The notes under the pieces are model-generated. The model was given only the letters and a program-made list of their open reading frames with translations. It made no database searches and had not been told where the DNA came from. A DNA stretch of 64,000 nucleotides from Candidatus Nomurabacteria bacterium (GTDB lineage Bacteria; Patescibacteriota; Minisyncoccia; Phycocordibacterales; UBA918): the NCBI GenBank assembly GCA_020632035.1, contig JACKGG010000002.1, positions 24,095-88,094 of the forward strand, read 5' to 3'. A program made the translations under genes and the position numbers. Shown here piece by piece: positions 4,901-44,630 of this stretch. Positions within the stretch are counted from its first letter, which is position 1; each line of letters opens with the position of its first letter.

Positions 4901-5649
4901 TTTTCCATCTCTGGATCGAGAACTTCTTGAACTGTAGTAGCACCTGTAACCTCTGATCTAGATGGACCGACAAATTCATTAACTTTGACTGATTTATCTG
5001 GACCAGAGTCCTCTGTTGTAGCAGTTTTTGGTTCATCAGAAACTTCAAGAGGTGTTGATTCTACTACAAGTGTACCTTCCGAGTTAATATTGGATTGTGA
5101 CTGATAATCTGACTCAGGTTTTAGTGGTCCAACAAAATCTTCTATGCTTGTTTGTGGATCTAAAGAAATGTTTTCGTCTTCATTTGCAGGTTTCTTTTGT
5201 GTATCAATCACAACCGGCTCTTGGGAAAATGAGGATTTTACATCTGCGGGTTTTTGTGCGTGCTCTGGATAACGCTCAGCAAAAATTTGTTCGGCTTGGT
5301 TAGAAATGGAAGAAAGAAATTTAATAGCTTCTGGAGTTAGAGTCACAGAATCATTCCATGCTTGACCAGTCATCTTAGCTAGATACTTTTCATCTTCAAT
5401 TTTTTGTCTTTCTTCATCACTTAACTGGAGCTCCATTGGACCGTTTTTATCAACCCAGTTTGCCTTCAGTTCTTGAATAATCCCTTGAAGTAGTCTTGCC
5501 TTCTTATCAATATTTTCTTGATTCTTTGTCCAGTGCACTTGATTCGGTCCTACAGGCTCAGGGTTCAAATCATCCTCGCCAAACTTTCGCAGTTTTCTTG
5601 CTCTGTGACTATTTTTATTTAAAAAGTTTGGGTTTTCTGAATCTGTCAT
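1966..5649 (-). CDS. Large (1227 aa) acidic, low-complexity protein of unknown function
   Basis: Long uninterrupted ORF. No signal peptide or TM helix visible. Rich in D/E/S/T/P tracts. Contains an internal tandem duplication of about 28 aa (…NYITQEQLDYAKDYVNGKLASD… / …NFMTQEQVEYGAKIVNGDASVE…) at roughly nt 3250-3420. No domain recognised by eye. Confidence 0.6.
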   Translation of the reverse strand: MTDSENPNFLNKNSHRARKLRKFGEDDLNPEPVGPNQVHWTKNQENIDKKARLLQGIIQELKANWVDKNGPMELQLSDEERQKIEDEKYLAKMTGQAWNDSVTLTPEAIKFLSSISNQAEQIFAERYPEHAQKPADVKSSFSQEPVVIDTQKKPANEDENISLDPQTSIEDFVGPLKPESDYQSQSNINSEGTLVVESTPLEVSDEPKTATTEDSGPDKSVKVNEFVGPSRSEVTGATTVQEVLDPEMEKELYEKLLEGLSPEEQEKAKLGIHNFGHKLQALKASSFSKVFGLMSKRFDQETTGGRFFTAWKEQFDEKEKKALDTIESLEDKKAEGGGIGKLDHLGNIGSAAGNALKYGRLAADAAGITVGFTQRLPMLLSMAAASGSEAAKEARLKNHEVIERTRIQEQDIEEAAEEAWKIHEIANQRTPEGEKVSRENLQKIYEERVPKDILKRLAKNPQPFTGTKMVQYVFQKHANYSVSRINKKFEKIDSDESITDKQKEAKKERILNGWLGLGSNRSMLKDYDRLLSQQGALDTVGMFARYTEKTAKVAVYGMMADSISKLYDQLLEVITSPEADEFLDSVEGYIKDENLDLYTAQEFVTDSGNTLMSDLTPGGTSKTAFAPVASVEDTPEVKVEPVATGGSTGTQISGTVAQATAEASVVSVPDDVPDNLPIDTKLNFDSTSASDYPFKQNPDLPPLDGAELSKDVDLPKSEIDSPTDTQSVVEGQAQQASGETSYRGPNYITQEQLDYAKDYVNGKLASDIKSVGARPDHPNFMTQEQVEYGAKIVNGDASVENQTSLSDVTRPEAGTEVLKESIANNIERIHEVKQGETLTGILVEAIKNRVAAGEMSYPSGEDENSIHSYLFRKFILMSEHSDSPGKVWEGYGVSSGNPDLIFAADAEGYGKTDKINVQAIIDDMKGTTDVQNIDSVASPFTEDSDDLSIAEVEEIVAKEAGWPQGGDGSEGLRGPNDYLPDEADASSPEEVVASTGDSEDSASIAKETPEVDVVPTPQSVPDVEVSVKPNADVVLPDVSGVEPETSVEGASETVEGSSNSREDFSAENTPNSQEDSSEVNNDPSEAILNNRGFSMEGKYAVMTHEFDLENGETLSKHIIETINQGKLDVNGVSKDGITLPIRLLSGSTNFTNNTEGLVAQALLELSGAVSEDGYKILPSGLEFTPDDWREFGISSGDPFRLSASDNFQTGKFIRLMLTGEDTLLAGR

Positions 5650-14733: not shown

Positions 14734-15816
14734 TTATTTATCGTAGACAGAAAAATGTGGAGCTGTTATATATCCAACAACTTGCACATCCTCTGTTCGC
14801 AGGCGACCTTTAGCATCTTTTACTAATGCATCAGCTTCTGCTTGAGTAGCGACCTCATACTTTGCAGTTAGACCATTTCTATAAGCTGCTTTTATAACAC
14901 TGACTATATCATCTGTACTTTTCATACCACCTTCGACTCCGTAATCCACACATGTACCATTTTGATGACAAGGATTTTTATGATTTACCCCAGGTGTTGG
15001 AGGCATAGCTTCAGTAACTCGAGCACCAACTACTGTTTTTGATACTTCTGCATGAAAATTAACTAACTTATCCAGAGTTATGGGAGAGACTGAACAAGTA
15101 TTTGAATTCTTGCAAGGCACACCGGCATCTGCCAGAGAACGACAGCCATTAAAACAGGCATCTTCCAATCCTGGCGTAATAGGTGGCTTAGGAGGGTCCA
15201 CACCATTTGGGCAATCCCAATGTTCTTCTTCGGTCTCTCCTCTTGCAACACTATATGTGCAATTACTCGGGAGACATTTCCAAATATTTCCCACTAAAGT
15301 ACAACCCATAGCTACCAGATCCCTGTTTTGTTGGAAAACTTTACTTGGTGGGACAGTATCATTCTGTTCAATACATTCAAGCGTAGACCATGGTCTATTA
15401 TTTAATTCACCTTCTCCACCAAGGAGTAAAGACTTCATAAGAGTGTCAACCAGCAGCCAAGCTCCCATAACAATTAGTATACCTATCAGAGCATTAGTCA
15501 TTTTTTGCTTTGCTTCAGTTTTAGCTGACGTATTACCGCCTGAAGTGACCAAGCTAAATCCTGCCCAAGCAGTAGTTATGGCAAATATCACCAGCATAAC
15601 TCCGATCAACCAGCCTAGGATATTTTCAGCCAACACCACTAAATGACAAGAATTACAGTCTGTTCCTTCGCAAGGAATTAATCCTCGGTCAACTTCCTCA
15701 GTCAGCACTTCTTGAGGCGGGTCTTCAACTGGAGCAGGTTCTTCTATTGGAGCAGAGAGCACGAAACCAGGTAAGACAATCAAACTAAACATCATTATAA
15801 AAATTGCCTTTTTCAT
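14734..15816 (-). CDS. Secreted Cys-rich protein with C-terminal two-helix pilin-like membrane domain (VirB2/TrbC-like topology)
   Basis: Signal peptide MKKAIFIMMFSLIVLPGFVLSAP, then a roughly 200-aa Cys-rich region. C-terminus (…ENILGWLIGVMLVIFAITTAWAGF…ALIGILIVMGAWLLVDTLMK) matches the two-hydrophobic-helix motif of the 31322-33793 paralog cluster. Confidence 0.7.
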   Translation of the reverse strand: MKKAIFIMMFSLIVLPGFVLSAPIEEPAPVEDPPQEVLTEEVDRGLIPCEGTDCNSCHLVVLAENILGWLIGVMLVIFAITTAWAGFSLVTSGGNTSAKTEAKQKMTNALIGILIVMGAWLLVDTLMKSLLLGGEGELNNRPWSTLECIEQNDTVPPSKVFQQNRDLVAMGCTLVGNIWKCLPSNCTYSVARGETEEEHWDCPNGVDPPKPPITPGLEDACFNGCRSLADAGVPCKNSNTCSVSPITLDKLVNFHAEVSKTVVGARVTEAMPPTPGVNHKNPCHQNGTCVDYGVEGGMKSTDDIVSVIKAAYRNGLTAKYEVATQAEADALVKDAKGRLRTEDVQVVGYITAPHFSVYDK

Positions 15817-16079: not shown

Positions 16080-16784
16080 TTAATTGATCACACGCTTATA
16101 GACAAACCCACTGTAACAAGGTCCAACTCCTGAAAAAACTGGCTCACGAGCAGTTAGTTCTAACGTTACTTGTTCGCCAGAAGCGATAACTTGCTTGTCT
16201 TCCTCACTAATTTCATTCCAAGGTAAGTTAATAATCAAACTCTTATCCTCGATCTGATTGACTGAATTACCACCTAAAGTACTCAATAGAGTTTTGAAGT
16301 GCCAAAAATTTGTCGGCCTAAACTGCAGTTTAAGTCCGTGACATTGTTGCGTCTGCTCCCACGCAGTTTTTTCGTACGTTTGATACAAGCCAGTCATTGA
16401 GAATGTTTCATTTAGTGCGTATGTATTACTAATATCATTTAGAAAATTATCTAAATTTTCTTCATCGTCAATAAAGTCTTTCACTGAGTACCTATCGAGT
16501 TTTTTACCGTCTAGGGTAATGCCAGCTTCGGTCGTATATGGTTCAACAATATCAGTCTGTCCAATTACCTCTTCCCGCACAACCTCTTTCTCAACTTCTT
16601 TCACTACAATTTTCTCAATCTCCGTAACCTTTTCTGGAGCAAAACTATATCCCACATACCCACCTACAAAAGGCAAAATGATAAAAAGTGCCATTGCTAG
16701 ATATTTAGATAAAGGTGTGATGGTGTGCAAGCGACTAACTTTCTTTACTTCAACAGTTTCCTGCACAATGATTTCTGGTTCCAT
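16080..16784 (-). CDS. Hypothetical membrane-anchored protein
   Basis: 234-aa ORF with a single N-terminal TM helix (LAMALFIILPFVGGYVGYSF) and a soluble domain. No known family recognised. Confidence 0.55.
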   Translation of the reverse strand: MEPEIIVQETVEVKKVSRLHTITPLSKYLAMALFIILPFVGGYVGYSFAPEKVTEIEKIVVKEVEKEVVREEVIGQTDIVEPYTTEAGITLDGKKLDRYSVKDFIDDEENLDNFLNDISNTYALNETFSMTGLYQTYEKTAWEQTQQCHGLKLQFRPTNFWHFKTLLSTLGGNSVNQIEDKSLIINLPWNEISEEDKQVIASGEQVTLELTAREPVFSGVGPCYSGFVYKRVIN

Positions 16785-16885
16785 ATTGACTAAATTTTAA
16801 CACACCAGTTTCGAACCAACTCAAGTTCGGCGCGTGACCACGTTAGTGGTTCTGTCGGAAACAAGTTCAAGCGGGGTTGAATAGA

Positions 16886-16927
16886 GACACATTTTAAAAA
16901 CACCCTTAAGGGTGTTTTTAAAATGTG
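16886..16927. repeat. Perfect 42-bp palindrome
   Basis: acacattttaaaaacaccc-ttaa-gggtgtttttaaaatgtgt: 19-bp perfect arms around a palindromic ttaa centre, in an intergenic region. Confidence 0.9.
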
Positions 16928-17016
16928 TGGTGGGTTTTGAGTTACTTCTTGAAATATGAGGCAACATGGGGCATATTGTCATCAGGTGCACATTCACACC
17001 TTGAGGGAGATTAAAA

Positions 17017-17370
17017 TTGGATATTACAATTAAACAAACCAACAGTTTGGGTGACGACAGAGAGAATGAACTCTGTCGAAGAATCACCAAACTTGTCATG
17101 GCGACCCAAAAGCGCCTAATTAAAGAAAATCCTTATAGAGACAACTCTATTTCTCGTATCAAGGAACCGGACTTCGATTTTCAGAGACTCAAGAGAGCAG
17201 ATGGTGAAAACCATTTAAGCGTAACGATTTGTTCTCATCGTATCGAAAAATGGGATGATGGGTTTAAGAAAAGTTTCCAAAGTAATTTACGGAAACTGTT
17301 GACTATAATTACTGGAGTAAAAGCACCTAATGTTTATTTGATTAAGCTTGTGCCCAAATCTTCAGAATAG
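17017..17370 (+). CDS. Hypothetical protein (TTG start)
   Basis: 117-aa ORF preceded by the RBS-like GAGGGAGA 6 nt upstream of TTG; followed by a terminator at 17391-17417. Confidence 0.45.
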   Translation: MDITIKQTNSLGDDRENELCRRITKLVMATQKRLIKENPYRDNSISRIKEPDFDFQRLKRADGENHLSVTICSHRIEKWDDGFKKSFQSNLRKLLTIITGVKAPNVYLIKLVPKSSE

Positions 17371-28243: not shown

Positions 28244-29185
28244 ATGGAATTTAATTTGAAGAATATTGGAAATGCAGTAACGCATGTGACGGGTGTTGCT
28301 TCCCACATTCACTCGGGCTTATCAATGATAGCACCCTTGTTTGGTAAAAAGGTCAATCCTCTTGACGAGGGTACGACTACCACCCCACCCGATCAGAAAA
28401 AAAAGGGTGGCTTGTTTAGCATCGATGATGAAGTTGGTTACGGTCAGCTCTTAACGGAGCTAGATCGTAAGTACGTCGGTTTCATAACCGGCTGTACAAA
28501 TGATCACTACTACGACTTCGCTCACCCGGAGCGTAGGGATGGTCTGAAAGGTCTTTTGCGAAGAGCCGAGGCTGAAAGAAAGTTCGATGGTTACAGAACA
28601 ATTGTAACCAATATGACCAAAAACGGTCTAAGAAAAGCTCAGCTCGAAGAGATTGTTAAAGCTGACATAACCAGGCGGGCAAAAATTCGCCTCTCAGATA
28701 CTGTGGCTAGCAACCCAAGACAAGGAAATCAAAACCGAGGTCGCAATCAACAACAGCGCCCCATCCTTGATAAAAGTACGACCACAACTACCAAGAAGTG
28801 GGATGAGTACACCAAGGAAAAACCCTATGCAAAGGCTTATCTCGAGGTGTTTGCAGAAACCATTAAGAGAGCTTATCTGGAGAATTTGACCGAGGAACAA
28901 ATTCAAAGGCTTTCTATCGATAAAGAAGCCAACATCGATAACCCCGAAGCACTGGCAATTGCCTATGAGGCGGGGGTCGACTTTCTTCGGGCGACCGGTA
29001 TCCCGGTCATGTCAGCGATGTCAGACGAACCTGGTTCGTTTGGTATAAACGAAATCGGAGCCACTGTTGGCCAGGGCCTGTCGGCAATCGACAGAGGCTT
29101 GGAAGCTACGTACGCTGAAAGGCGTGCCCAGCGAGAAGCCGAAAGTGGCAGGTTTATAAAATTTCTCGAAAAATTCTTGAAATAG
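28244..29185 (+). CDS. Hypothetical protein
   Basis: 313-aa ORF with a strong upstream promoter. The next gene starts 11 bp downstream with the RBS GGGAGA. No recognisable domains. Confidence 0.6.
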   Translation: MEFNLKNIGNAVTHVTGVASHIHSGLSMIAPLFGKKVNPLDEGTTTTPPDQKKKGGLFSIDDEVGYGQLLTELDRKYVGFITGCTNDHYYDFAHPERRDGLKGLLRRAEAERKFDGYRTIVTNMTKNGLRKAQLEEIVKADITRRAKIRLSDTVASNPRQGNQNRGRNQQQRPILDKSTTTTTKKWDEYTKEKPYAKAYLEVFAETIKRAYLENLTEEQIQRLSIDKEANIDNPEALAIAYEAGVDFLRATGIPVMSAMSDEPGSFGINEIGATVGQGLSAIDRGLEATYAERRAQREAESGRFIKFLEKFLK

Positions 29186-29195
29186 GGAGAACAAA

Positions 29196-30566
29196 ATGAA
29201 AGACGAAACAAAAAATACGTGGATGGAGGGTGTTACAGACACCCTGAAGAAAGTTGCTGTAGGGGCTGGCTTGTTAGCTTCGGTCGTAGACTGGGGTAAT
29301 AACGGACCACCTCTGCAGAGAGCCTGGCAGGAAGCAAACCAGACAACTACCAGAAACCTGGCAATTATCTGGAAAGGCCTTTTCCAAGCCATACTTGTCC
29401 TTGTTTTGGCTTTTGTCCTTACCTGCTTAAAGGTTTACACGGGACAGGATTGGACTATTTGGCTTAGTTTTGGCGTTGCCATACTTAGTACAACCCTGGT
29501 CATCATGACCTTTCTAGGCTCGCGCCTGGTGTTGGGTACGGCGGTACTGGGTACCCTAAGTGGGTGGCTACAAGATAAGGACAAGTCGATCAGTGTCTGG
29601 GGGGCTGAGGTAAAACTCTTCACCCTGGTCATGACACTTGCCGGACTATTCTTGGCTCCCCAATACTTTCTGGTGGCCTGGCCATTCGAAAACAATCTTG
29701 GGGCCTTCTGGTTAGTTTTTCTCGGAGCTATCCTTTTGTCATTTCTGACATTGACGATACCGAGCAAGCTGATCAAAGGATTGGCGTGGGTATTCATTCC
29801 TACGACAATGATTGCCGCTCTCTGGTCAACTCTCCCAGGGACGTACACCGGGGTCATGTTCAACAAGAACGGTGTTGCTAAGTATATGCAAGAACCGTCA
29901 GAGTTTGATCAAAACAGCCTCCCGGTGGTATACGTTCAGTACACTCCTAAAACTTGCCGCCCTGAAGACAAAAAACACTTCATGAAAGCGGTCAACGAAA
30001 AAGGAGAAGAGGTAAACGGGATGTTTCCTTACGCAACGGAAGGAACCTGCGCTTCTCCAAGGAGCGGAGTCAAGCTTATCCCAGTCACTCGGGCGACAGC
30101 TTTGGCATATCAACCATGGAGTAGAATACAGGCTTTCTTTGGTGGCTTTAAAACCACAATTGAAAGTCTGGACGAAGTGCTTAAAGTGGCCGAGGAGCAG
30201 CCGCAACGGCCTTCCTACGACTACAACTCACCGGCGATCATGCCGGACCAACCGGTCGCAGCCAGTCTGAAACCGGCAAGGGCCGAACCAGTGGCACAGC
30301 AGTGCCCTGGTCCGGATTCGATCCAGCTTGAAATCTGCAACGGAGATCAAGTTTGGTCTGATCCAGTCGTCGTCCAAGTGGGCTGTGGAGTTATTGGGGT
30401 CTACAACCTGGACCTGGTCCGATACCAGGGCCTAGTTAATGGGGAGTGGATCGAATTCACCACCCCAACCAGTACAAAAGGTAAAAAAATAAGCGCACTA
30501 AAGTGGTGCGCAAGAAATTCCTTTGTTGCTGAGCGAGAAATGCCGCTCTTGCGCAAAGTGATATAA
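29196..30566 (+). CDS. Hypothetical polytopic membrane protein (about 6 TM) with C-terminal Cys-containing extracytoplasmic domain
   Basis: 456 aa. The N-terminal 230 aa are mostly hydrophobic helices; the C-terminal 220 aa are soluble with 6 Cys. Forms an operon with the upstream ORF; adjacent to the pilin-like cluster. Confidence 0.6.
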   Translation: MKDETKNTWMEGVTDTLKKVAVGAGLLASVVDWGNNGPPLQRAWQEANQTTTRNLAIIWKGLFQAILVLVLAFVLTCLKVYTGQDWTIWLSFGVAILSTTLVIMTFLGSRLVLGTAVLGTLSGWLQDKDKSISVWGAEVKLFTLVMTLAGLFLAPQYFLVAWPFENNLGAFWLVFLGAILLSFLTLTIPSKLIKGLAWVFIPTTMIAALWSTLPGTYTGVMFNKNGVAKYMQEPSEFDQNSLPVVYVQYTPKTCRPEDKKHFMKAVNEKGEEVNGMFPYATEGTCASPRSGVKLIPVTRATALAYQPWSRIQAFFGGFKTTIESLDEVLKVAEEQPQRPSYDYNSPAIMPDQPVAASLKPARAEPVAQQCPGPDSIQLEICNGDQVWSDPVVVQVGCGVIGVYNLDLVRYQGLVNGEWIEFTTPTSTKGKKISALKWCARNSFVAEREMPLLRKVI

Positions 30567-30641: not shown

Positions 30642-31181
30642 CTAGTTTGTCACTGGAGGTTCAATACTTCTATCAACGGGACCTGGGTTTCCTCCTCCGG
30701 TGCCAGGACCAGGATTACTTCCTCCAGTGCCGGGGCCTGGATTACTTCCTCCAGTACCTGGACCAGGGTTTTCACCTCCTGTGCCGGGACCGGGGTTTTC
30801 ACCTCCTGTGCCGGGACCGGGGTTTTCACCACCGGGGATACTCGTATCAGGTAATACAAAAGCATCTCCACAGTCTGGTCCGCTTGGGTTATTGGCACAA
30901 TCTAGTTGTTTATCAAGACCAAAAGTAGAAGTAGCAATACTCAATATAGCAAAAGCTGAAAGCATCACCACTAGGCCAATTATCCCAAAAGTGATATGCT
31001 TTACTCCCTGCCCCCTCGCTGTTTCGTTGGCAGAATTAACAAAGTATTCTACACAACCCCAAACAAAAACAAGAAAAGCTACCGCACTAAGAAGAGCGAT
31101 AGTAGGAAACAATATAATGTCATTAAATTTATCTACAAATTTAGCAGCTTCTTCGGTCGCTTGTTGTTGAGGTGTTGCCAT
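30642..31181 (-). CDS. Two-helix pilin-like membrane protein (VirB2/TrbC-like topology) with C-terminal (GENPGPGTG)x6 repeat tail
   Basis: Two hydrophobic helices (ILFPTIALLSAVAFLVFVWG…/…TFGIIGLVVMLSAFAILSIA) separated by a short polar loop, then six nine-residue Gly/Pro repeats. Confidence 0.7.
   Translation of the reverse strand: MATPQQQATEEAAKFVDKFNDIILFPTIALLSAVAFLVFVWGCVEYFVNSANETARGQGVKHITFGIIGLVVMLSAFAILSIATSTFGLDKQLDCANNPSGPDCGDAFVLPDTSIPGGENPGPGTGGENPGPGTGGENPGPGTGGSNPGPGTGGSNPGPGTGGGNPGPVDRSIEPPVTN
30683..30843 (-). repeat. In-frame 27-bp tandem repeat (6 copies) encoding GENPGPGTG
   Basis: cctcctccggtgccaggaccaggattactt… and related units repeated head-to-tail; the track protein shows GENPGPGTGG x3 then GSNPGPGTGG x2 and GGNPGP. 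Confidence 0.85.
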
Positions 31182-31321
31182 AGATAAATATTAGCATACC
31201 CAACTAATGACAAAACTGTTTATCCAATAATTTTCTAAACAAAAACCACCCGCAGGTGGTATTGTTTTGTTTTACGCGTAGTACTTCTGATCAAAGTGAA
31301 AATCTTCAATGAAATACTATT

Positions 31322-31738
31322 TTAAGAACTTGGAGGAGGTATAGTGACCCCTTTAACATCTGTATCACTAACAGCGGTTCCTTTGTCGAGACCGGTGCTT
31401 GATGAGAGTAAGTTGATTACTCCCCAGAAAACGATAATGATTACAAAACCTAGCGTTGCGTAGATCATTAAGCTTTTTCCTTTTTCTTTTGCTTCATCGT
31501 TGGCTCCACCAAAAATGAAGTAGCGGAACATACCCCAGACAAAGAACAGGAAGGCAATCCCAATAATAAACGGAATAAGTATTGTGTTTGCAAAGGTTAG
31601 TAGATCTTCAAGTAATTTACCAAAACCTCCACCGGTACCGTCATCTGCTAAACCAGCGGCTGAAACCAGAAATGGCAAGGCAAGCATTGAAAAGCTTAGT
31701 GCTATCAGTAAGTTTTTCTTTATAGTTGAGACTATCAT
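31322..31738 (-). CDS. Secreted two-helix pilin-like protein (VirB2/TrbC-like topology), paralog 1
   Basis: Signal peptide, then …NTILIPFIIGIAFLFFVWGMFRYFIFGGANDEAKEKGKSLMIYATLGFVIIIVFWGVINLLSSSTGL…. Confidence 0.7.
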   Translation of the reverse strand: MIVSTIKKNLLIALSFSMLALPFLVSAAGLADDGTGGGFGKLLEDLLTFANTILIPFIIGIAFLFFVWGMFRYFIFGGANDEAKEKGKSLMIYATLGFVIIIVFWGVINLLSSSTGLDKGTAVSDTDVKGVTIPPPSS

Positions 31739-31760
31739 GTATATAAGAATTAATTGATAA

Positions 31761-32153
31761 TTAAGTGCTTGGTGCTACTGGTATATCAGCATTAATTTTA
31801 GGAATATTTTGCACCTCTTTACCACCAAGGCCTGTACTTGATGAAAGCAAGTTGATTACTCCCCAGAAGACAATTATAAGCACAAAACCTAGGGTAGCCC
31901 AGATCATTAAGCTTTTTCCTTTTTCTTTTGCTTCGTCGTTGGCCCCACCAGCAATAAAGTAGCGGAACATACCCCAGACGAACACCAAGAAACCAATACC
32001 AATAATAAATGGAATAATGACAGTATTGGTGAATTCTAAAATATTCCCCAGTAGAGTTCCAAACTTTCCGCCATTTGGATTAAATTCAGCCAAGGCCAGC
32101 ATAGGCATGACAGACAATATTGCTCCACTAGTGAGAAAACTTATTTTTTTCAT
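31761..32153 (-). CDS. Secreted two-helix pilin-like protein, paralog 2
   Basis: …NTVIIPFIIGIGFLVFVWGMFRYFIAGGANDEAKEKGKSLMIWATLGFVLIIVFWGVINLLSSSTGL…; about 75% identical to paralog 1. Confidence 0.7.
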   Translation of the reverse strand: MKKISFLTSGAILSVMPMLALAEFNPNGGKFGTLLGNILEFTNTVIIPFIIGIGFLVFVWGMFRYFIAGGANDEAKEKGKSLMIWATLGFVLIIVFWGVINLLSSSTGLGGKEVQNIPKINADIPVAPST

Positions 32154-32241
32154 ATGTTTTATAAATAAACTGATAACGTTGTAACGTTTACCTTATTATA
32201 TGACACTAGTTAGTATGTCTAGTGAGTTATTCACCTCCTGC

Positions 32242-32619
32242 TTATGGAACGATAACTGAAGGAATATTCTGGATTGACTCTCCCTCAAGTCCAGTACTGC
32301 TAGTTAATAGGTTGATTACACCAAAGAAAATGATGATCACCACAAAACCAATAACAGCATGGATCATTAAACTTCTTCCTTTTACTTTTTTCTCGTCATC
32401 GGCTCCACCCATTATGAAATATAGAAACATTCCCCAAACAAAGAATAGGAAACCAATACCAATAATAAACGGTATGAGGACGTCATTTATGAACTGCATC
32501 AAGTTAATCAGAAGATCTTCAAACCCACCACCATTTGATGAATCAGCAATTTGTGCTGAAGAAACAAAAGGTAGAAGTAATACTGAACTAACTGGAATTG
32601 TGGCTAAAATCTTTTTCAT
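32242..32619 (-). CDS. Secreted two-helix pilin-like protein, paralog 3
   Basis: …NDVLIPFIIGIGFLFFVWGMFLYFIMGGADDEKKVKGRSLMIHAVIGFVVIIIFFGVINLLTSSTGL…. Confidence 0.7.
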   Translation of the reverse strand: MKKILATIPVSSVLLLPFVSSAQIADSSNGGGFEDLLINLMQFINDVLIPFIIGIGFLFFVWGMFLYFIMGGADDEKKVKGRSLMIHAVIGFVVIIIFFGVINLLTSSTGLEGESIQNIPSVIVP

Positions 32620-32700
32620 AAATTAATATTATTTAATTGCTTAAAATTATACCCGGATAAACTAAAATGTAAAGGGTCTTCTGTGGTCACTAAGCCTAGC

Positions 32701-32949
32701 CTAGCCGAACAAAGTTGACTTTATCATGGCTACAATCCCCCAAGCACTTATCATTACCACAAACGCTATAACGGCAGATACTGCGTAACTCTTGCCCTCT
32801 TCTACTTTTTTTCCGTCTCCGGCATGAATGATCCAGGAATCAATCATCTTCCAAACAAAATACACGAACATAGCCGCAAATATAGTTGGTATGATTATGT
32901 TTATGAGGCCGATTATTAAACCTACTAGTTCTTTGTAATCTGTTGGCAT
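32701..32949 (-). CDS. Small two-helix membrane protein, divergent pilin-like paralog
   Basis: 82 aa with two hydrophobic helices flanking GDGKKVEEGKS; same architecture, lower similarity. Confidence 0.55.
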   Translation of the reverse strand: MPTDYKELVGLIIGLINIIIPTIFAAMFVYFVWKMIDSWIIHAGDGKKVEEGKSYAVSAVIAFVVMISAWGIVAMIKSTLFG

Positions 32950-32975
32950 GATAATTTGATTAAAGGTTGTAAGTA

Positions 32976-33239
32976 TTAAAAAGCATTTACTACGTTTTGC
33001 ACAATCTGGGTAATGGCTACTGCACCAATCAGTATCACTCCACCGATTACTCCATATAAGAGTGCTTGAGAAGCCACCTTTATTTTCTCTGGATTACCAC
33101 GGGCCGTCACATACAAGAAGCCAGCGTATATAAGATAAAATATTACAATCGGCGTTGCCATTATTATAACCACATTCAAAACAGCGACCAGCAACTCTGA
33201 TATGTTCGGAAATTTTAATGGGTTATCGAAATTTTCCAT
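32976..33239 (-). CDS. Small two-helix membrane protein, pilin-like paralog (subfamily B)
   Basis: …VVIIMATPIVIFYLIYAGFLYVTARGNPEKIKVASQALLYGVIGGVILIGAVAITQIV…; nearly identical motif to the C-terminus of the 33254-33793 protein. Confidence 0.65.
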   Translation of the reverse strand: MENFDNPLKFPNISELLVAVLNVVIIMATPIVIFYLIYAGFLYVTARGNPEKIKVASQALLYGVIGGVILIGAVAITQIVQNVVNAF

Positions 33240-33253
33240 ATTAAATATATTTT

Positions 33254-33793
33254 CTAAGCCCGGAAAGCATTTATTATATTTGATAGTATTTCCGACAGGG
33301 CGACAGAGCCTAGTAAAATCACACCTCCAATAATGGCATACGTGAGTGCGGTAGTCGCTTCTTGTATTTTGGTTGGGTTTCCTCTGGCAGTTACGTAGAG
33401 GAAACCAGCATAAATAATATACAAAACAATGATCGGCGTAGCGATTACGATGAATATACTAAGCAGTGCTGACAATAAACCTTCTATTGAAGTGATACTC
33501 TCACTTAAAGGGCTTTTTACAGTGTATTTTATTCCAGTAGTCTCAACGCTAGTTGATTTTGTTCCTGGTTCAGGTTCAAGTTCTTCACCCCAACAATCAC
33601 AGTCAAAAAATCCATCTTCTGCAGGACTTGGGTTACATCTTGGAAGATTTGGTGGTTCACAAGAGCATACGTTACCGGGCTGGAGACCGTTACATGGTTC
33701 TTGAGCGATTGAAACTTGTGCGACACTGAAAAGTGTCAGGATAAACAGAAAAATGCTTACACTGATCACTGTTTTGTTTATACTGTATTTCAT
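33254..33793 (-). CDS. Secreted Cys-rich protein fused to C-terminal two-helix pilin-like domain (subfamily B)
   Basis: Signal peptide; Cys-rich segment CNGLQPGNVCSCEPPNLPRCNPSPAEDGFFDCDCWGEE; then …FIVIATPIIVLYIIYAGFLYVTARGNPTKIQEATTALTYAIIGGVILLGSVAL…. Confidence 0.7.
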   Translation of the reverse strand: MKYSINKTVISVSIFLFILTLFSVAQVSIAQEPCNGLQPGNVCSCEPPNLPRCNPSPAEDGFFDCDCWGEELEPEPGTKSTSVETTGIKYTVKSPLSESITSIEGLLSALLSIFIVIATPIIVLYIIYAGFLYVTARGNPTKIQEATTALTYAIIGGVILLGSVALSEILSNIINAFRA

Positions 33794-33799
33794 ATTTTA

Positions 33800-35107
33800 T
33801 TAATATTCATTACCCAGCCTTGAGGCTGCGTCTGACACGGCACCGTCGAGATCACGCCGGTTTTCATTAATATCTTGCGTCATTGTGGCTAAGATTTGAT
33901 TAGAAGCAGACAATTCTGGGTTGAGCCAACCTAGCGCAATAGACGCCGATTTATAGGCCACCCTGCCGTAAAGATTGTTACTACCTAGTGCAACCGTGCT
34001 TCGGTATGCTGGCACCATATTGCTTTCAACCGCAATTCTATTGGCAATAGTTGCCCCAGCAAAGTTGGTCATGACTGAGCCGGCACCAACTTTGTTATCT
34101 GATGATTTGAGCAATGAAATAGCATAGAACTTTCCGTAAGTACGCCTGATGGTGGCTTCGGCTCCTTGTGGAACTTCTGCAATATCAAAGTTAAGATTAG
34201 GATTCAGCTTTTCTATCTGAGCACCCTCACTTCCATAGCCAAAGTAAGTAGTTAATCTTTCGGCAACGAACTCAGAGCGGTCATCTTTAAAGGATCTGTT
34301 CCAGGAATAAAGAGAATTACTTGGTCTGCTAAATCTAGTATAGAAATCGGCCGCAGCTCGAAGGGGGTCACTACTCCCATTTTCAGATAGACGCAATTTT
34401 ACCTGGTACTTATCACTTCCATCTAGGAGAACTGCTTGGGAGCCACCCTGGAAAAGTAAGGCTGAAATTATTCCAAAAGCATTGCGAACATTGTTGTACT
34501 CACCCATAGCTACCACCGCTTGCCTGATCGTTCTATCTGAGTCACGTTTAATTAATTCCGGAAAGATAGAATTTACCAAATCTTCCCAAGTGGCCGGCGC
34601 TGATAAGAATCCGGAGTTGGTGAAAATATTTTTGTTCCAATACATCATTAGAGGGTCAACCGCAATCGGGTAACCATACAAACCATCATTAAGAGCAAAA
34701 ATCTGAGCTCCGTCTATATAGGCGTCTTTAATATTCCTGAGCGGAAAGAATTCGAAAGAAATTGGTTGGATTCTCTTTCGAGTCTCGACCAATTTTTCAT
34801 GAGACACCAAAACCAAGTCCGGACCAGTCCCGTCAGCCAGTGCATTAACTAATCTTTCATCAAATTGAGTTGGCGAGTAATAACGATATGATACATTGTT
34901 GTATGACTCATCAATCTCGCTGAGTTCTCTAATTATTTTATTGATCGGGTCTGCCGGCAAGGTGCCCCAAATGGTCACGCTACCAACCACTGCTTGTGGC
35001 TCATCTGAACCAGAACCACCATCAAAAGTAGACAAGATTACTAAGGCCGTAAGCCCTAATCCGACAAAGATAATCACCAAGGCTAATTCAAACGGTCGGA
35101 GTTTCAT
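33800..35107 (-). CDS. Membrane-anchored extracellular solute-binding-protein-like protein (SBP family 1 fold)
   Basis: N-terminal TM anchor, then motifs typical of sugar-type SBPs (VTIWGTLP…, PDLVLVSHEKLVE, YGYPIAVDPLMMYWNKNIF). No cognate permease or ATPase adjacent. Confidence 0.55.
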   Translation of the reverse strand: MKLRPFELALVIIFVGLGLTALVILSTFDGGSGSDEPQAVVGSVTIWGTLPADPINKIIRELSEIDESYNNVSYRYYSPTQFDERLVNALADGTGPDLVLVSHEKLVETRKRIQPISFEFFPLRNIKDAYIDGAQIFALNDGLYGYPIAVDPLMMYWNKNIFTNSGFLSAPATWEDLVNSIFPELIKRDSDRTIRQAVVAMGEYNNVRNAFGIISALLFQGGSQAVLLDGSDKYQVKLRLSENGSSDPLRAAADFYTRFSRPSNSLYSWNRSFKDDRSEFVAERLTTYFGYGSEGAQIEKLNPNLNFDIAEVPQGAEATIRRTYGKFYAISLLKSSDNKVGAGSVMTNFAGATIANRIAVESNMVPAYRSTVALGSNNLYGRVAYKSASIALGWLNPELSASNQILATMTQDINENRRDLDGAVSDAASRLGNEY

Positions 35108-35652
35108 AATTTACGAAAAGCTAACCCGTAATGGTGGCCACCAGCCGGATACTCGCGCTCGAAGACAAAACCATTGGATTCAAATATTGCAGTAGACTCC
35201 TCTGCAGTCACAACGTGGTCTGGTGCTGGGCCCATGCCCGCAAAAGACTCTGTCCAATCGATGACAAAGAACTTACCCCCGGCACGAACGGTACGACCCA
35301 TCTCTGCTACTGCGGCATTTTTATCTTCCATCATGAAAAAAGTATTGACTAAGACACCAGCGTCGAGCTCGCCAGTTGGTATCTTTATGCCGTTTGGCTC
35401 CTCTAAGTCACACCATAGAGGGTGTATGTTAGATAGTTTTTGCAACCGAGCCTGGTCTCCCAGCCTCTCCACTAAAGCCTTTTGGATTTCGCAAGCAAAA
35501 ACTCGACCGGTCTCGCCAACTGTTTGCGACAGAGCTGGTAAGAAAAAACCGCTACCGGCACCAAAATCTGCCACCATGTCACCTTCTCGTAAGTGGAATT
35601 GTGTCACCACGACGTCTGGTATAACAAAGGTTCCGCCGACTGAAATATTCAT
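35104..35652 (-). CDS. Class I SAM-dependent methyltransferase
   Basis: Motif I DFGAGSGFF and post-I acidic residue (…RVFACEIQ…). Overlaps the downstream gene by 4 bp (translational coupling). Confidence 0.7.
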   Translation of the reverse strand: MNISVGGTFVIPDVVVTQFHLREGDMVADFGAGSGFFLPALSQTVGETGRVFACEIQKALVERLGDQARLQKLSNIHPLWCDLEEPNGIKIPTGELDAGVLVNTFFMMEDKNAAVAEMGRTVRAGGKFFVIDWTESFAGMGPAPDHVVTAEESTAIFESNGFVFEREYPAGGHHYGLAFRKL

Positions 35653-35752: not shown

Positions 35753-38224
35753 CTAAACAAACACCACGCTCGCAATCGAATCCCCAGCTCGCATCTTCAT
35801 TACTCGCACTCCCTGAGTCTGTCGGCCAAGAGTTGGCACTTGTTTCAATGGAAGCTTAATCACCTGCCCTTTCTTGCTCATGATCACCAGCTCTCCTTCT
35901 TCCCTTTCTTCTCCAGTTAAAATAATACCCCTTACAATAGAACCGGTCTTATCTGTCACTTTAGCGGTCTTGATACCTGAACCACCCCGCTTTTGTACTT
36001 TGTATTCTTTAGCTGGTGTGGCCTTACCGTAGCCGTGCTCGGTAACTATTAGCACAACCCGGTCTTTATCGGAAGACTTAAGCACATCGGCTGAAACAAT
36101 CACATCTCCCTTACCGAGCTTCATAGCGGTTACTCCAGCGGCCGTTCGTCCCATTTCTCGCACATCACTTTCTTTGAAGCGGATAGCCTGACCTTTTTCT
36201 GTAATCAAAGACACCTCATCTTTCTTACCAACGAACAAAGCATCAATTAAGGAGTCATCGCCTTTGAGAGTAATCGCGATCAGTCCACTCCGGCGGACAT
36301 CTTTGAAGGCAGCCGCATCGCTCTTCTTAGCTACACCGTTCTTAGTGATCATCATCAGTGACCAGTCGCCATCCCAGTCTTCCTTTCGCACCGCTAAGAC
36401 CGAGGTGACTCTTTCTTCAGCGTTCATAGACAAGAAGTTCATGATCGACTTACCCTTAGTCGCTCGCCTTCCTTCTGGGATCTCGTACATCTTGCACTGA
36501 TAAACTTTTCCAGCGTCGGTAAAGAAGAGGAGGTCACTGTGAGCAGAAGTAGTTAAAAGAGTAGTTACCATATCCTCTTCTTTCGTATTCAAGTCAACCA
36601 CTCCGACCCCTCCTCGCTTTTGTACTTTATATTCAGCTGGGTTGGTACGCTTCACGTATCCACCTTGGGTTAACACCAGCACACTTTCATCGTCTGGCAC
36701 TAAGTCTTCTGGGTTGAGTTGCTTTACCCCACCTTTCACAATCTTAGTTCGGCGATCGTCACCGAATTTTTCTGCTACTTCCAGCAAGTCTTTCTTGATT
36801 ATCGCTAGCATTTTAGCCTTACTCTTCAAAATAGCCTCAAGCTCTTTGATCAGCTTTTGGATAGCCGCTAGTTCGTCTTCGATTTTCTTGCGTTCAAGTC
36901 CAGCTAGTTTCTGGAGACGCATATCGAGGATCGCTTGCGCTTGAATAGCGGAAAACTTGAACTCCTTCATCAAAGCGGCGTGAGCAGTTGGGACGTCTTT
37001 TGAGGCTCTGATGAGCTTGATTATCTTGTCTATATGATCAAGCGCTTTTTTTAGACCAAGGAGAATGTGCTCGCGGTCCTTAGCTTTATTTAAGTCATAC
37101 TGAGTTCGACGTCGAATTACTTCCACTCGGTGCTTAACATACTCTTGCAGTATTACCTTAAGCGACAAAGTCTGCGGCACACCATCTACCAAGGCCACCA
37201 TATTGTAGTGGAAAGTATCTTCGAGCTGAGTGTGCTTGTATAGTTTGTTTAAGACAGTCTGAGGCTGAGCTCCAGTCTTCAACTCAATCACAACTCGGAT
37301 GTCATTGGTCGACTCATCACGCATCTCTCGAATTCCTTCGATCTTTTTATCTCGCACCAGATTTGCAATCTTTTCTTGCAGGTCGGCTTTGTTAACTCGG
37401 AAAGGAATCGAAGTAATTATTATTGAAAAAGCACCCCGTTTATCTTCTACGATCTCTGCCTCTCCCCGCACAACCACTCCACCTCGACCAGTTGCATAAG
37501 CTTGGGCAATGGCTTTTTTATCGAAGGCAATAGCTCCCATTGGAAAATCTGGTCCTTGAACAAACTTTAGTAGATCGTCGGTATTAGCCTCTGGATTGTC
37601 GATCAGGTATGCGACCGCGTCTGCCACTTCGCGCAAGTTGTGCGGAGGAATATTAGTAGCCATACCAACTGCAATCCCAAGTGAACCAAGGAGAAGCAAG
37701 TTTGGTGCTGCTGCTGGAAGTACCACTGGCTCTTTCTTAGTACCATCGAAGTTTGGTCGCCAATCAACTGTGTCTTTTTCTAGATCACGAAGTAGTTCCT
37801 CTGCCACCTTAGACATTTTCGCCTCGGTGTATCGATAAGCGGCGGCTGAATCACCGTCGATTGATCCGAAGTTTCCTTGTCCAATAACCAGTGGATATCG
37901 TGTGGAAAAGTCCTGCGCCAGCTTAACCATAGCCTCGTACACAGAAGCATCGCCATGGGGATGGAAACTACCGAGTACGTCTCCTACTACCGTCGCAGAC
38001 TTGCGGAATTTGGCAGTAGAGGTAAGGCCGTTGAGACGCATTGAGTAGAGAATCCGGCGGTGCACTGGCTTTAAGCCGTCGCGCACATCTGGTAGAGCAC
38101 GCTGGGTAATAACCGACATGGCATAGTCTAGATACGCAGTCTCCATCTCACCAGTAATACTCTGAGTGATGATTTTATTATGTTGTGGAATGATTGGCTC
38201 TTCGGCCTGGGTCTTTTTCGGCAT
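35753..38224 (-). CDS. gyrA: DNA gyrase subunit A
   Basis: …[29 protein letters not shown]… (active-site Tyr region), followed by C-terminal beta-pinwheel repeats; 823 aa. Confidence 0.93.
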
Positions 38225-43985: not shown

Positions 43986-44630
43986 ATGTCACTATTCTCA
44001 AACAAAGAAATTACTAACGAAACCTCTGATCAAGAGAATACTGAAGACATGAAAACTGAACACCCTCTAACCGAGATCGTTCGCTTCTCCATCATTGCAA
44101 TTCTTATCGTTATTCCGATTAGAATGTTTATCGCTCAGCCATTCATCGTGTCTGGAGCTTCAATGGATAACACTTTCCACAGTGGTCAGTATTTGATTGT
44201 GGATCAAGTCACCTACCTCTTCGAGAAACCTAGCCGTGGAGACGTGATTGTTTTTCGTTATCCAAAGGATCCTTCTAAATTCTTTATCAAAAGAGTCATT
44301 GGCCTACCCGGAGACACTCTATCTATCGAAAATAGCAGGGTGACAATTGTTAATGAGGCTAATCCGGATGGTTTCACCCTAGATGAACCATACATAAAGT
44401 CTATGGAGCCTACCTCACCCTTCACCGAGACCCTCGGCGAGCGCGAATACTTCGTCATGGGTGACAACCGTGACCAAAGCTCAGATTCAAGGAGCTGGGG
44501 AGTTTTGCAAGAAGAAAGGATAGTCGGTAGAGCCTTGGTGCGATTGTTTCCGCCGAGCGCCCTAGATTATCTGCCAGGAGCCACCAGTTACATTTACGAA
44601 AAGAACCAAGACGCCGTTACCAAAAATTAG
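43986..44630 (+). CDS. lepB: Signal peptidase I
   Basis: Catalytic Ser box (SGASMDNTF), Lys box (…KRVIGLPGDTLSIEN…), …VMGDNRDQSSDSRSWG…. Confidence 0.9.
   Translation: MSLFSNKEITNETSDQENTEDMKTEHPLTEIVRFSIIAILIVIPIRMFIAQPFIVSGASMDNTFHSGQYLIVDQVTYLFEKPSRGDVIVFRYPKDPSKFFIKRVIGLPGDTLSIENSRVTIVNEANPDGFTLDEPYIKSMEPTSPFTETLGEREYFVMGDNRDQSSDSRSWGVLQEERIVGRALVRLFPPSALDYLPGATSYIYEKNQDAVTKN

Follow-up and report, generated by a model that had tools for sequence, protein, structure and literature searches.

The DNA analysed here, which we call the window, is a stretch of 64,000 nucleotides from a Candidatus Nomurabacteria bacterium (contig JACKGG010000002.1, positions 24,095 to 88,094). Between positions 30642 and 33793 it carries seven consecutive open reading frames (ORFs) on the minus strand, which encode proteins of 179, 138, 130, 125, 82, 87 and 179 amino acids (aa) in order of their coordinates, and an eighth, related gene lies apart from them at 14734-15816. 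An earlier note, written from the letters of this DNA, had described these genes as small two-helix proteins resembling conjugative pilins, and all eight ORFs that it listed proved to be real. We assign the encoded proteins, from their sequence profiles, to the T4SS_pilin family of Patescibacteria (Pfam PF18895), and we find that the array is composed of four types, here called A to D, which follow one another in the same order in related genomes. The genes and signals of the array are given below in the direction of transcription, with PF18895 scores in bits and E-values for NF045849 and TrbC (PF04956).

33254-33793, minus strand: type B pilin, copy 1, 179 aa; PF18895 34.4 bits; TrbC 1e-3; NF045849 8e-8
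32976-33239, minus strand: type B pilin, copy 2, 87 aa; bare hairpin, leaderless; PF18895 22.5 bits; TrbC 1.4e-3
32701-32949, minus strand: type C pilin, 82 aa; bare hairpin, leaderless; PF18895 25.3 bits
32646-32673, minus strand: promoter-like site TTTACA-16-TATAAT (11/12), in the 81-bp spacer before the first A gene
32242-32619, minus strand: type A pilin, copy 1, 125 aa; signal peptide and FFVWGMF...GGADDE hairpin; PF18895 24.8 bits; NF045849 4e-8
31761-32153, minus strand: type A pilin, copy 2, 130 aa; PF18895 33.8 bits; NF045849 5.5e-9; candidate major subunit
31322-31738, minus strand: type A pilin, copy 3, 138 aa; PF18895 35.3 bits; core 81% identical to copy 2
31235-31260, minus strand: intrinsic terminator, hairpin ACCACCTGCGGGTGGT and T-tract, after the last A gene
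30642-31181, minus strand: type D pilin, 179 aa; PF18895 25.3 bits; NF045849 9e-5; TIGR03758 (integrative and conjugative element, ICE, protein) 5e-3
30677-30830: 27-bp tandem DNA repeat encoding the D tail (Tandem Repeats Finder, TRF: period 27, 5.5 copies, 81% matches)

A hydropathy scan found two strong hydrophobic segments with a short charged loop between them in every one of the eight proteins, in agreement with the topology read earlier from the letters. A signal-peptide-like N-terminus is present in five of the eight (genes at 31322, 31761, 32242, 33254 and 14734) and ends in VSA, ALA, SSA, SIA or LSA; the leader is absent from the remaining three (30642, 32701 and 32976). A lack of cleavage sites had been named in advance as evidence that would count against pilins, and signal-peptidase-type motifs were found wherever a leader exists. 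In type B copy 1, the signal peptide is followed by an N-terminal ectodomain of about 65 aa, holding all six cysteines (Cys) of the protein, and by the IYAGFLYVTARGN hairpin. Type D is leaderless and consists of an acidic N-tail, the hairpin, a conserved LDCA...GPDC Cys pair and a Gly/Pro tail, (G-x-NPGPGTG)x6, whose nonapeptide variants can be written (G-E/S/G-NPGPGTG)x6. The repeat tail and the Cys-rich domains reported earlier are both borne out, the former by the TRF result listed above and the latter by counts of 6 Cys at 33254-33793 and 14 Cys at 14734-15816. In the AlphaFold model of type A copy 2, residues 4-20 form a signal helix, and 29-68 together with 73-106 a helical hairpin; the predicted local distance difference test score (pLDDT) is 72.6 overall and 83-90 in the hairpin. 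The hairpin cores of the window pilins are on average 30% identical, within a range of 13-81%.

PF18895 is the best Pfam match for all eight proteins. Four of them score above its gathering score of 26.6 bits (35.3, 34.4, 33.8 and 32.2 bits), and the other four lie below it by 1.3-4.1 bits (22.5-25.3). The NCBIfam model NF045849, which describes the Mbov_0395 family of pilin-like conjugal transfer proteins from Mycoplasma ICEs, is matched by seven of the eight (E 5.5e-9 to 9e-5) with scores of 22-36 bits, under the 40-bit equivalog cut-off, which makes the window proteins relatives of that family and no equivalogs. A profile built from the eight cores retrieved at least 2769 proteins in a word-index search, and the best 120 of these 2769 all carry PF18895; an exhaustive search with the same profile retrieved 55,359 representatives of 50%-identity clusters. 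We thus conclude, on sequence grounds, that the array proteins and the separate 360-aa paralogue are members of the Patescibacteria T4SS_pilin family and VirB2-like in topology, so that the VirB2/TrbC-like identity proposed in the earlier note is supported. Membership in TrbC/VirB2 proper (PF04956) is another matter, as by score the window proteins fall below its threshold.

It should be mentioned that many of the best-scoring relatives, found in a library of 1.84 billion proteins, string together 2-17 tandem T4SS_pilin hairpins in one polypeptide, with linkers of about 35-60 residues between them. Examples are P0292 (820 aa; a signal peptide and eight hairpins), P0293-P0301 and P0379 (1775 aa). 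Polypeptides of this kind imply that several hairpins act side by side.

The comparison with relatives was based on 56 loci in GTDB species representatives, found through the orthologue (41-74% identity) of a solute-binding protein (SBP) whose gene directly precedes the array, and scanned with a hidden Markov model (HMM) built from the window's pilins. They belong to metagenome-assembled genomes (MAGs) of Nomura-, Kaiser- and Paceibacteria type, so the arrays come from a Nomurabacteria/Kaiserbacteria-like clade of Paceibacteria; the SBP orthologue was also present on two further metagenome contigs. Wherever a locus includes downstream DNA, four to seven same-strand ORFs that match the pilin HMM come immediately after the SBP gene. 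Average-linkage clustering of 265 pilins from 57 arrays gave four stable, position-specific types in place of the two sub-families distinguished in the earlier note, a division which is therefore to be replaced.

The order B(1-2)-C-A(1-3)-D is invariant in 51 of 51 complete arrays, the window reading B B C A A A D. In composition, 25 arrays are BCAD, 9 BBCAAD, 7 BCAAD, 4 BBCAAAD (the window included), 4 BCAAAD and 2 BBCAD. Type B is always the first gene after SBP, and a second, leaderless B copy occurs in 15 of the 51. Type C is a single copy in every array, always between B and A; type A follows in one to three copies; and type D, again a single copy, is the last gene in all 51. Across loci, signal peptides are found on type A and on the first B copy, and none on C, D or the second B copy. 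Each type also has its own hallmark, such as LIPFI-IGFLvFVWGmF-yFI-GGAndE-k-kGKSL in type A, FiIyaGFlYVTArGN in type B, and in type D a Cys pair just past helix 2 that is kept in the type consensus. Profile-profile alignment with hhalign linked the types to one another with probabilities of 99.3% (A-C), 98.8% (A-D), 98.0% (C-D), 96.3% (A-B), 87.3% (B-D) and 71.2% (B-C). The four are thus orthologous groups of ancient origin, each with conserved motifs of its own.

Spacing divides the array further. The SBP, B and C genes are tightly packed, about 10 bp apart, which suggests co-transcription of SBP and pilins, and the median gaps in relatives are 9-12 bp for B-B and B-C, 103 bp from C to A, 87 bp from A to A and 91 bp from A to D. 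A GC hairpin (-8 kcal/mol or lower) with a T-tract is present in the A-to-D spacer in 38 of 46 loci, with differing stem sequences, while the same test was positive in one of 49 C-to-A spacers and in none of the B-B and B-C spacers. The terminator and the spacers together suggest that type A is set apart transcriptionally and is probably the abundant subunit. As a side observation, no Shine-Dalgarno sequence is recognisable within 30 nt upstream of any pilin gene, the upstream DNA being AT-rich.

Among orthologues, the hairpin cores are 51-62% identical, like SBP, and the N- and C-terminal flanks 26-43%; the N-extension of B ranges from 6 to 163 residues and the tail of D from 0 to 91. The closest relative, L007, has 95% aa identity in gyrA and 73% in SBP, and its pilin cores are 62-75% identical to those of the window (75% for type B copy 2); type B copy 1 aligns in the core only, at 51%. 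The B ectodomain and the D tail cannot be aligned even with L007, where the D tail reads (GGGGPVVP)x3 as against (GxNPGPGTG)x6 in the window. At the nucleotide level (blastn), the flanks match L007 at 75-91%, and the SBP-pilin block gives no matches at all. Other samples yielded three contigs of the same organism; these match the window with 100% identity, and two of them, both short-read contigs, break off within the 27-bp repeat. Conserved cores with variable outward appendages fit a heteromeric surface structure better than a set of antigenic variants.

The genes upstream of the array are placed as the earlier note had described, co-directionally with it, as the ORF listing and the Pfam scan agree: gyrA, a class-I methyltransferase gene and the SBP-like gene are found directly upstream, on the strand of the pilins.

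35753-38224, minus strand: gyrA, upstream of the array, same strand as the pilins
35104-35652, minus strand: class-I S-adenosylmethionine (SAM) methyltransferase, 182 aa; Pfam Methyltransf_11/25 E ~3e-9; PDB 3dh0 6e-19
33800-35107, minus strand: orphan family-1 (MalE/sugar-type) SBP homologue, 435 aa; N-terminally membrane-anchored; 6 bp before the first pilin gene

The methyltransferase gene is the first of the tightly packed unit and overlaps the start of the SBP gene by 4 bp (35104-35107, ATGA). Its orthologue (41-81% identity) lies directly upstream of SBP in nearly every related locus that extends far enough upstream, and start coordinates suggest the same 4-bp overlap in most of them. 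The overlap is a sign that translation of a cytoplasmic methyltransferase is coupled to that of a secreted SBP and of the pilins; for the enzyme itself, adjacency suggests at most a putative role in the pilin system. The window copy of SBP has no Pfam match at E<=0.01, and against the NCBIfam MalE model it reaches 1.2e-7, far under the cut-off and in the N-lobe only. Its orthologues carry precomputed PF01547/PF13416 assignments, its profile matches sugar SBPs of the PDB (3uor at 4.5e-5), and NCBI names the protein 'carbohydrate ABC transporter substrate-binding protein'. Beside SBP, neither the window nor any of the 56 related loci has a permease of an ATP-binding cassette (ABC) transporter (BPD_transp-type) or a partner ATPase.

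The separate paralogue combines the same hairpin with what is predicted to be an enzyme.

14734-15816, minus strand: separate paralogue, 360 aa, 14 Cys; PF18895 32.2 bits

Its gene lies between tRNA-Trp and tRNA-Tyr, beside miaA, and the protein consists of a signal peptide, a Cys pair, the T4SS_pilin hairpin, a Cys-rich linker and a C-terminal domain resembling LAS/M15-type zinc peptidases. All 51 detectable homologues carry PF18895; Peptidase_M15_3 is matched by three of them (best 3.5e-14) and VanY by two, and the window protein itself reaches no Pfam peptidase threshold. In the alignment of the 51 homologues, H284-x6-D291...H354 is nearly invariant. The AlphaFold model has a pLDDT of 81.9 overall, mostly >90 over the last ~140 residues, and its top Foldseek matches in the PDB are E. 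coli MepA (1u10) and about 35 Hedgehog-N chains (probability 1.0, E ~1e-2), domains which we take to be members of the LAS zinc-peptidase fold. On this model, the C-domain is predicted to adopt a cell-wall peptidase fold of LAS/M15 type. Two relatives (L070:8967-9977 and L071:8975-9979) have, immediately upstream of the paralogue's orthologue, a second fusion of 334-336 aa, in which T4SS_pilin (5.9e-12) is joined to SLT (PF01464, 1.2e-15), the domain type of VirB1. Fusions of pilin and hydrolase are an independent pointer to envelope biology of a type IV secretion system (T4SS)-like kind in this clade. A tblastn search found no SLT part in the window, which either lost the pilin-SLT gene or never had it; the ORFs at 16080-16784 and 16821-17099 were considered as a disrupted copy and rejected, their translation being unrelated and without an SLT match in tblastn.

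Apart from these genes, the window is a housekeeping region. By a Pfam scan of essentially all substantial ORFs it contains serS, dprA, topA, relA/spoT, parB, miaA and clpB, the genes for IF-2 and the S1 protein, rbfA, gyrA, pth, lepB and ftsA, as well as ftsZ, ddl, znuABC and glmS; a signal peptidase I gene lies at the following position.

43986-44630: signal peptidase I gene

The same scan found no VirB4, VirB11, VirD4 or type-IV-pilus ATPase in the 64-kb window, and the ORFs without a Pfam match (1227, 333 and 234 aa) have no Walker A motif, which confirms the absence of VirB4/VirB11/VirD4 that the earlier note had stated. No phage genes were seen among the window ORFs of the array neighbourhood, and an Rfam scan of the window returned tRNAs only.

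On balance, and with moderate confidence, we read this cluster as a chromosomal array of VirB2-like pilins which constitute a fixed set of four specialised subunit types rather than interchangeable variants. In such a scenario, each protein would enter the membrane as a hairpin of helices and keep both its termini on the outside; type A, the first B copy and the 360-aa paralogue would use Sec and signal peptidase I, while C, D and the second B copy, with their short N-tails, would insert without a leader. An MPF-FATA-like T4SS of the Patescibacteria kind, encoded elsewhere in the genome, could then extract the hairpins and assemble them into a heteromeric pilus or a short conduit. Type A would be the abundant structural subunit, and B, C and D low-copy initiator, adaptor or tip subunits, so that the hypervariable B ectodomain and the Gly/Pro-rich D tail might point outward and touch the host cell. 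The SBP, if co-transcribed as its position suggests, could plausibly bind a glycan or nutrient from the host at this surface, and in the 360-aa protein the same hairpin may anchor a cell-wall peptidase, in analogy to VirB1.

A bolder version of this idea is that methyltransferase, SBP, B, C, A and D together form a self-contained and conserved Paceibacteria 'uptake pilus' module, which breaches the host wall and captures glycans or metabolites. We consider it doubtful, a long shot at present. If it were true, a heteromeric VirB2-like filament (major A, minor B, C and D) would be deployed with an orphan sugar-binding protein, the hairpin would be a general targeting and anchoring module that can be decorated with LAS peptidase or SLT domains, and the poly-pilins of 2-17 hairpins would be covalent versions of the same heteromeric assembly.

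Several results weigh against a pilus built of four subunit types, and they concern its identity, its assembly and its operon logic in turn. The closest link to VirB2 itself is faint. PF04956 (TrbC/VirB2) is matched weakly by the two IYAGF-type (type B) proteins (E ~1e-3; 19.6 and 19.2 bits), and none of the eight proteins reaches its gathering score of 27.9 bits. When aligned by hhalign with true VirB2/TrbC, represented by seven alphaproteobacterial plasmid sequences whose genes sit between virB1 and virB3, type A scored 74.7% and types B, C and D below 3%. A sequence search of the PDB with the eight-protein profile gave chance matches to membrane helices and no pilin, and Foldseek found nothing significant in the PDB for the type A monomer model (best E 1.7), a null result to be expected, as a helical hairpin is too simple a fold to discriminate. 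Nor do we know of any organism in which a filament has been demonstrated for the PF18895 family. No VirB4, VirB6, VirB3 or VirD4 gene was found within 30 kb on either side in the window, or within 10 kb in any related locus, so that what connects the array to a T4SS is the family of its proteins and the literature.

The operon argument has its own weak points. All 56 loci share synteny throughout the stretch between the S1 gene and IF-2 (gyrA 76-95% identity), so that the adjacency of SBP with the pilins, and of the methyltransferase with SBP, may reflect inherited gene order and not function. The matches listed in the SBP profile search were close orthologues only (55-73% identity), and the adjacency is thus inseparable from inherited synteny. 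The basis for regarding type A as probably the major subunit, a reading of gene arrangement, is limited to the terminator and the spacers. The promoter-like site before type A scores at least 9/12 in only 27 of 54 loci; it is poorly conserved and unconvincing in AT-rich DNA, and we rejected it as a conserved promoter and keep it as a hint, not a finding.

Of the competing explanations, the one to which we give most weight, even if it seems rather unlikely, is that the hairpins never form a filament and instead belong to a translocon or channel within the cytoplasmic membrane, either associated with a T4SS, as is presumably the case for the ICEs of wall-less Mycoplasma, or serving uptake together with SBP. 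The closest named relative outside the phylum is a Mycoplasma ICE protein, T4SSs of monoderms are generally without pili, no T4SS machinery is encoded nearby, and the SBP gene is tightly co-oriented with the array. Moreover, the polypeptides with 2-17 hairpins resemble polytopic membrane proteins, and three of the seven array proteins have no cleavable leader. On the other hand, the operon contains no permease-like or ATPase partner for SBP, the family adjoins virB4 in most other Patescibacteria, and the bulky ectodomains, the fusions to peptidoglycan hydrolases and a terminator which isolates one subunit are more in keeping with a surface polymer that has minor subunits. The earlier note had itself suggested surface variation. 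Taken further, this reading would make the paralogues interchangeable pilins, swapped or differentially expressed per host or against host defence. Such a role was proposed for the VirB2 paralogues of Bartonella and Anaplasma and is also suggested in PMC12102498, and part of it finds an echo here: genomes differ in how many copies they have of type A (1-3) and of type B (1-2), A copies within a genome are on average 58% identical and up to 77%, a sign of duplication within lineages, hypervariability is seen in the B ectodomain and in the D tail, and the SBP-pilin block diverges faster than its flanks. What does not agree is the rest of the array. Its cores and type order are conserved in the 51 complete arrays, with four ancient orthologous types that have their own motifs and with B-C-A-D invariant even where SBP identity falls to 41%; C and D never occur in more than one copy; no silent cassettes, inverted repeats or recombinase were seen; and the three contigs that other samples yielded for this organism are identical to the window. 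We thus find antigenic variation improbable as the purpose of the array as a whole, while variation may still apply within type A and on the B and D appendages.

Finally, the proteins might have nothing to do with pilins and be small membrane proteins of another kind (holins, bacteriocin or immunity proteins, or generic DUF-type hairpins) that look like pilins by hydrophobicity alone. Short proteins with two transmembrane segments do match with low specificity, four of the eight lie just under the Pfam gathering score, JGI calls some homologues 'YidH (DUF202)', and one paralogue is fused to a wall-hydrolase fold, a combination similar to that of holin-endolysin pairs. The holin case had been named in the earlier note as the assignment that would overturn its proposal. 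It found no backing in PHROGs, where no holin was matched and the single match (0.0065) is to a family of unknown function, and the pilin reading stands. Every protein has a T4SS/conjugation pilin family as its best match in two independent libraries, the signal peptides and loop motifs (GGN/GGA-D-E...K-GK) are family-specific, and the neighbourhood contains no phage genes and belongs to a housekeeping context that is syntenic in 56 genomes. A holin or phage origin was rejected on the PHROGs result, and this explanation, largely refuted by the profile searches, strikes us as very improbable indeed.

The pilin identity first read from the sequence is thus supported, and the array is one more case of a phenomenon already described. 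In a survey of 3,035 Patescibacteria genomes with PF04956 and PF18895, VirB2-like pilins were found in 1,948 VirB4-containing assemblies and near virB4 in 1,135 (PMC12102498). The same study reports 441 'VirB2 arrays' of 2-11 genes in 383 Patescibacteria assemblies, with about 25% within-array identity (Quinonero-Coronel et al. 2025, PMC12102498), and suggests that such arrays aid adaptation to different hosts. Nomurabacteria rows in its Table S1 are marked 'Yes' for VirB4 (PMC12102498). The window array corresponds to these arrays in Pfam family (PF18895), phylum, chromosomal location and the absence of a relaxase nearby, and it falls under their definition, namely at least two pilin genes of low identity in tandem or one non-pilin gene apart; its mean core identity is 30% as compared with 25%. 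It differs in coming from Paceibacteria, whereas arrays are most abundant in Microgenomatia and Saccharimonadia (PMC12102498). Southlakia epibionticum ML1 requires a series of six pilins within its T4SS cluster for epibiotic growth (Wang et al. 2023, PMC10633639), and peptidase and lysozyme homologues next to virB4 are likewise essential in Southlakia. The Southlakia array lies inside its T4SS gene cluster, unlike the window array, which is at least 30 kb from any T4SS gene and surrounded by housekeeping genes. A 2025 review speculates that the pilus is a conduit for uptake from the host (PMC12857230). Supplementary figures aside, the fixed four-type order, the methyltransferase-SBP lead pair and the terminator after A are not described in these three papers (PMC12102498, PMC10633639, PMC12857230). 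The four-type order, the terminator after A, the methyltransferase-SBP lead genes and the pilin-hydrolase fusions are thus possibly unreported.

Compared with the classical TrbC/VirB2 pilins (A. tumefaciens VirB2, RP4 TrbC and F TraA), the window proteins are alike in having two helices and a polar or basic loop, in a long leader, in a mature core of about 70-90 residues and in a weak profile similarity. The genetic setting is different: TrbC/VirB2 genes sit by virB1, virB3 and virB4, the window pilins by SBP, methyltransferase and gyrA instead. Furthermore, the array consists of multiple specialised paralogues and not of one major pilin plus VirB5, its host is a monoderm, and some of its members have large ectodomains or enzyme domains, unlike the TrbC/VirB2 proteins of diderms. 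The best named match outside the phylum, the Mbov_0395/MMCAP2_0565 family (NF045849), covers nearly its whole 80-residue model in seven of the eight proteins and comes from a monoderm conjugation system of MPF-FATA type, the class to which the Patescibacteria VirB4 is related; the Mycoplasma protein is a single gene in a mobile element, in contrast to the chromosomal multi-type array. With VirB1-type hydrolases, the 360-aa fusion and the pilin-SLT fusion of the relatives share a peptidoglycan-hydrolase domain, here joined to a hairpin. VirB1 itself is soluble, periplasmic and not fused to a pilin hairpin, unlike the 360-aa protein, which is a predicted peptidase. Operons for type IV pilus minor pilins, chaperone-usher pili and sortase pili also combine homologous subunits with a fixed gene order, with one subunit transcriptionally apart and others bearing variable adhesive appendages. 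This is a functional analogy only, as the folds and assembly machines of these pilus classes are unrelated to the window pilins.

A large part of bacterial diversity belongs to the Patescibacteria, and to our knowledge all cultivated members are epibionts of other microbes. In the one species examined by genetics, the T4SS, a VirB2-like pilin array included, proved essential, a picture which the window locus leaves unchanged. What the locus adds is a testable structure, i.e., four ordered types, a terminator by which type A stands out as the likely bulk subunit, hypervariable B and D appendages that probably contact the host, an orphan SBP gene in tight linkage and hairpins joined to cell-wall hydrolases. 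Together, these features lead to predictions on the stoichiometry, localisation and non-redundancy of the subunits, and argue against viewing such arrays simply as antigenic-variation cassettes.

Some observations on the surroundings of the array remain to be mentioned. In CP060229.1, a closed genome of a relative (994,774 bp; locus at 29.8-51.1 kb), and in JACKGC010000001.1, a large contig (locus at 5.8-27.1 kb), the array is found no more than about 50 kb from where the record begins. A position near the replication origin is compatible with these data, the window carrying parB but not dnaA, and T4SS genes were reported near the replication origin in Patescibacteria (PMC12102498). Between the end of the array and a conserved rhodanese gene, a variable island (28244-30566, plus strand; 2-2.5 kb in other loci) contains two convergent genes for proteins of 313 and 456 aa, the latter with a polytopic N-half and a Cys-containing C-half. 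In other loci the island genes encode 470 and 146 aa (L004) or 379 and 341 aa (L005); they have no Pfam matches and almost none are mutually similar, and the 456-aa protein has weak homologues (23-32%) in L016 and L030. The convergent pair (28244-29185 and 29196-30566) was considered as VirB6-like partners of the pilins and rejected, as it has no Pfam match and relatives carry unrelated genes at this place. Further away, an ORF of 1227 aa (1966-5649, minus strand) has no Pfam match, no Cys and no Walker A motif, and the N-terminal part of its product is acidic and of low complexity. Proteins identical to those of the window carry the NCBI locus tags H6785_01835 (type A copy 2) and H6785_01740, assigned to Ca. 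Nomurabacteria. One 126.7-kb contig of a Paceibacteria MAG, CAXRCZ010000007.1, contains the SBP-pilin locus twice (L025, 4000-25292; L060, 101425-122717), with matching gene coordinates and scores, and this double locus is probably an assembly artefact or a large duplication.

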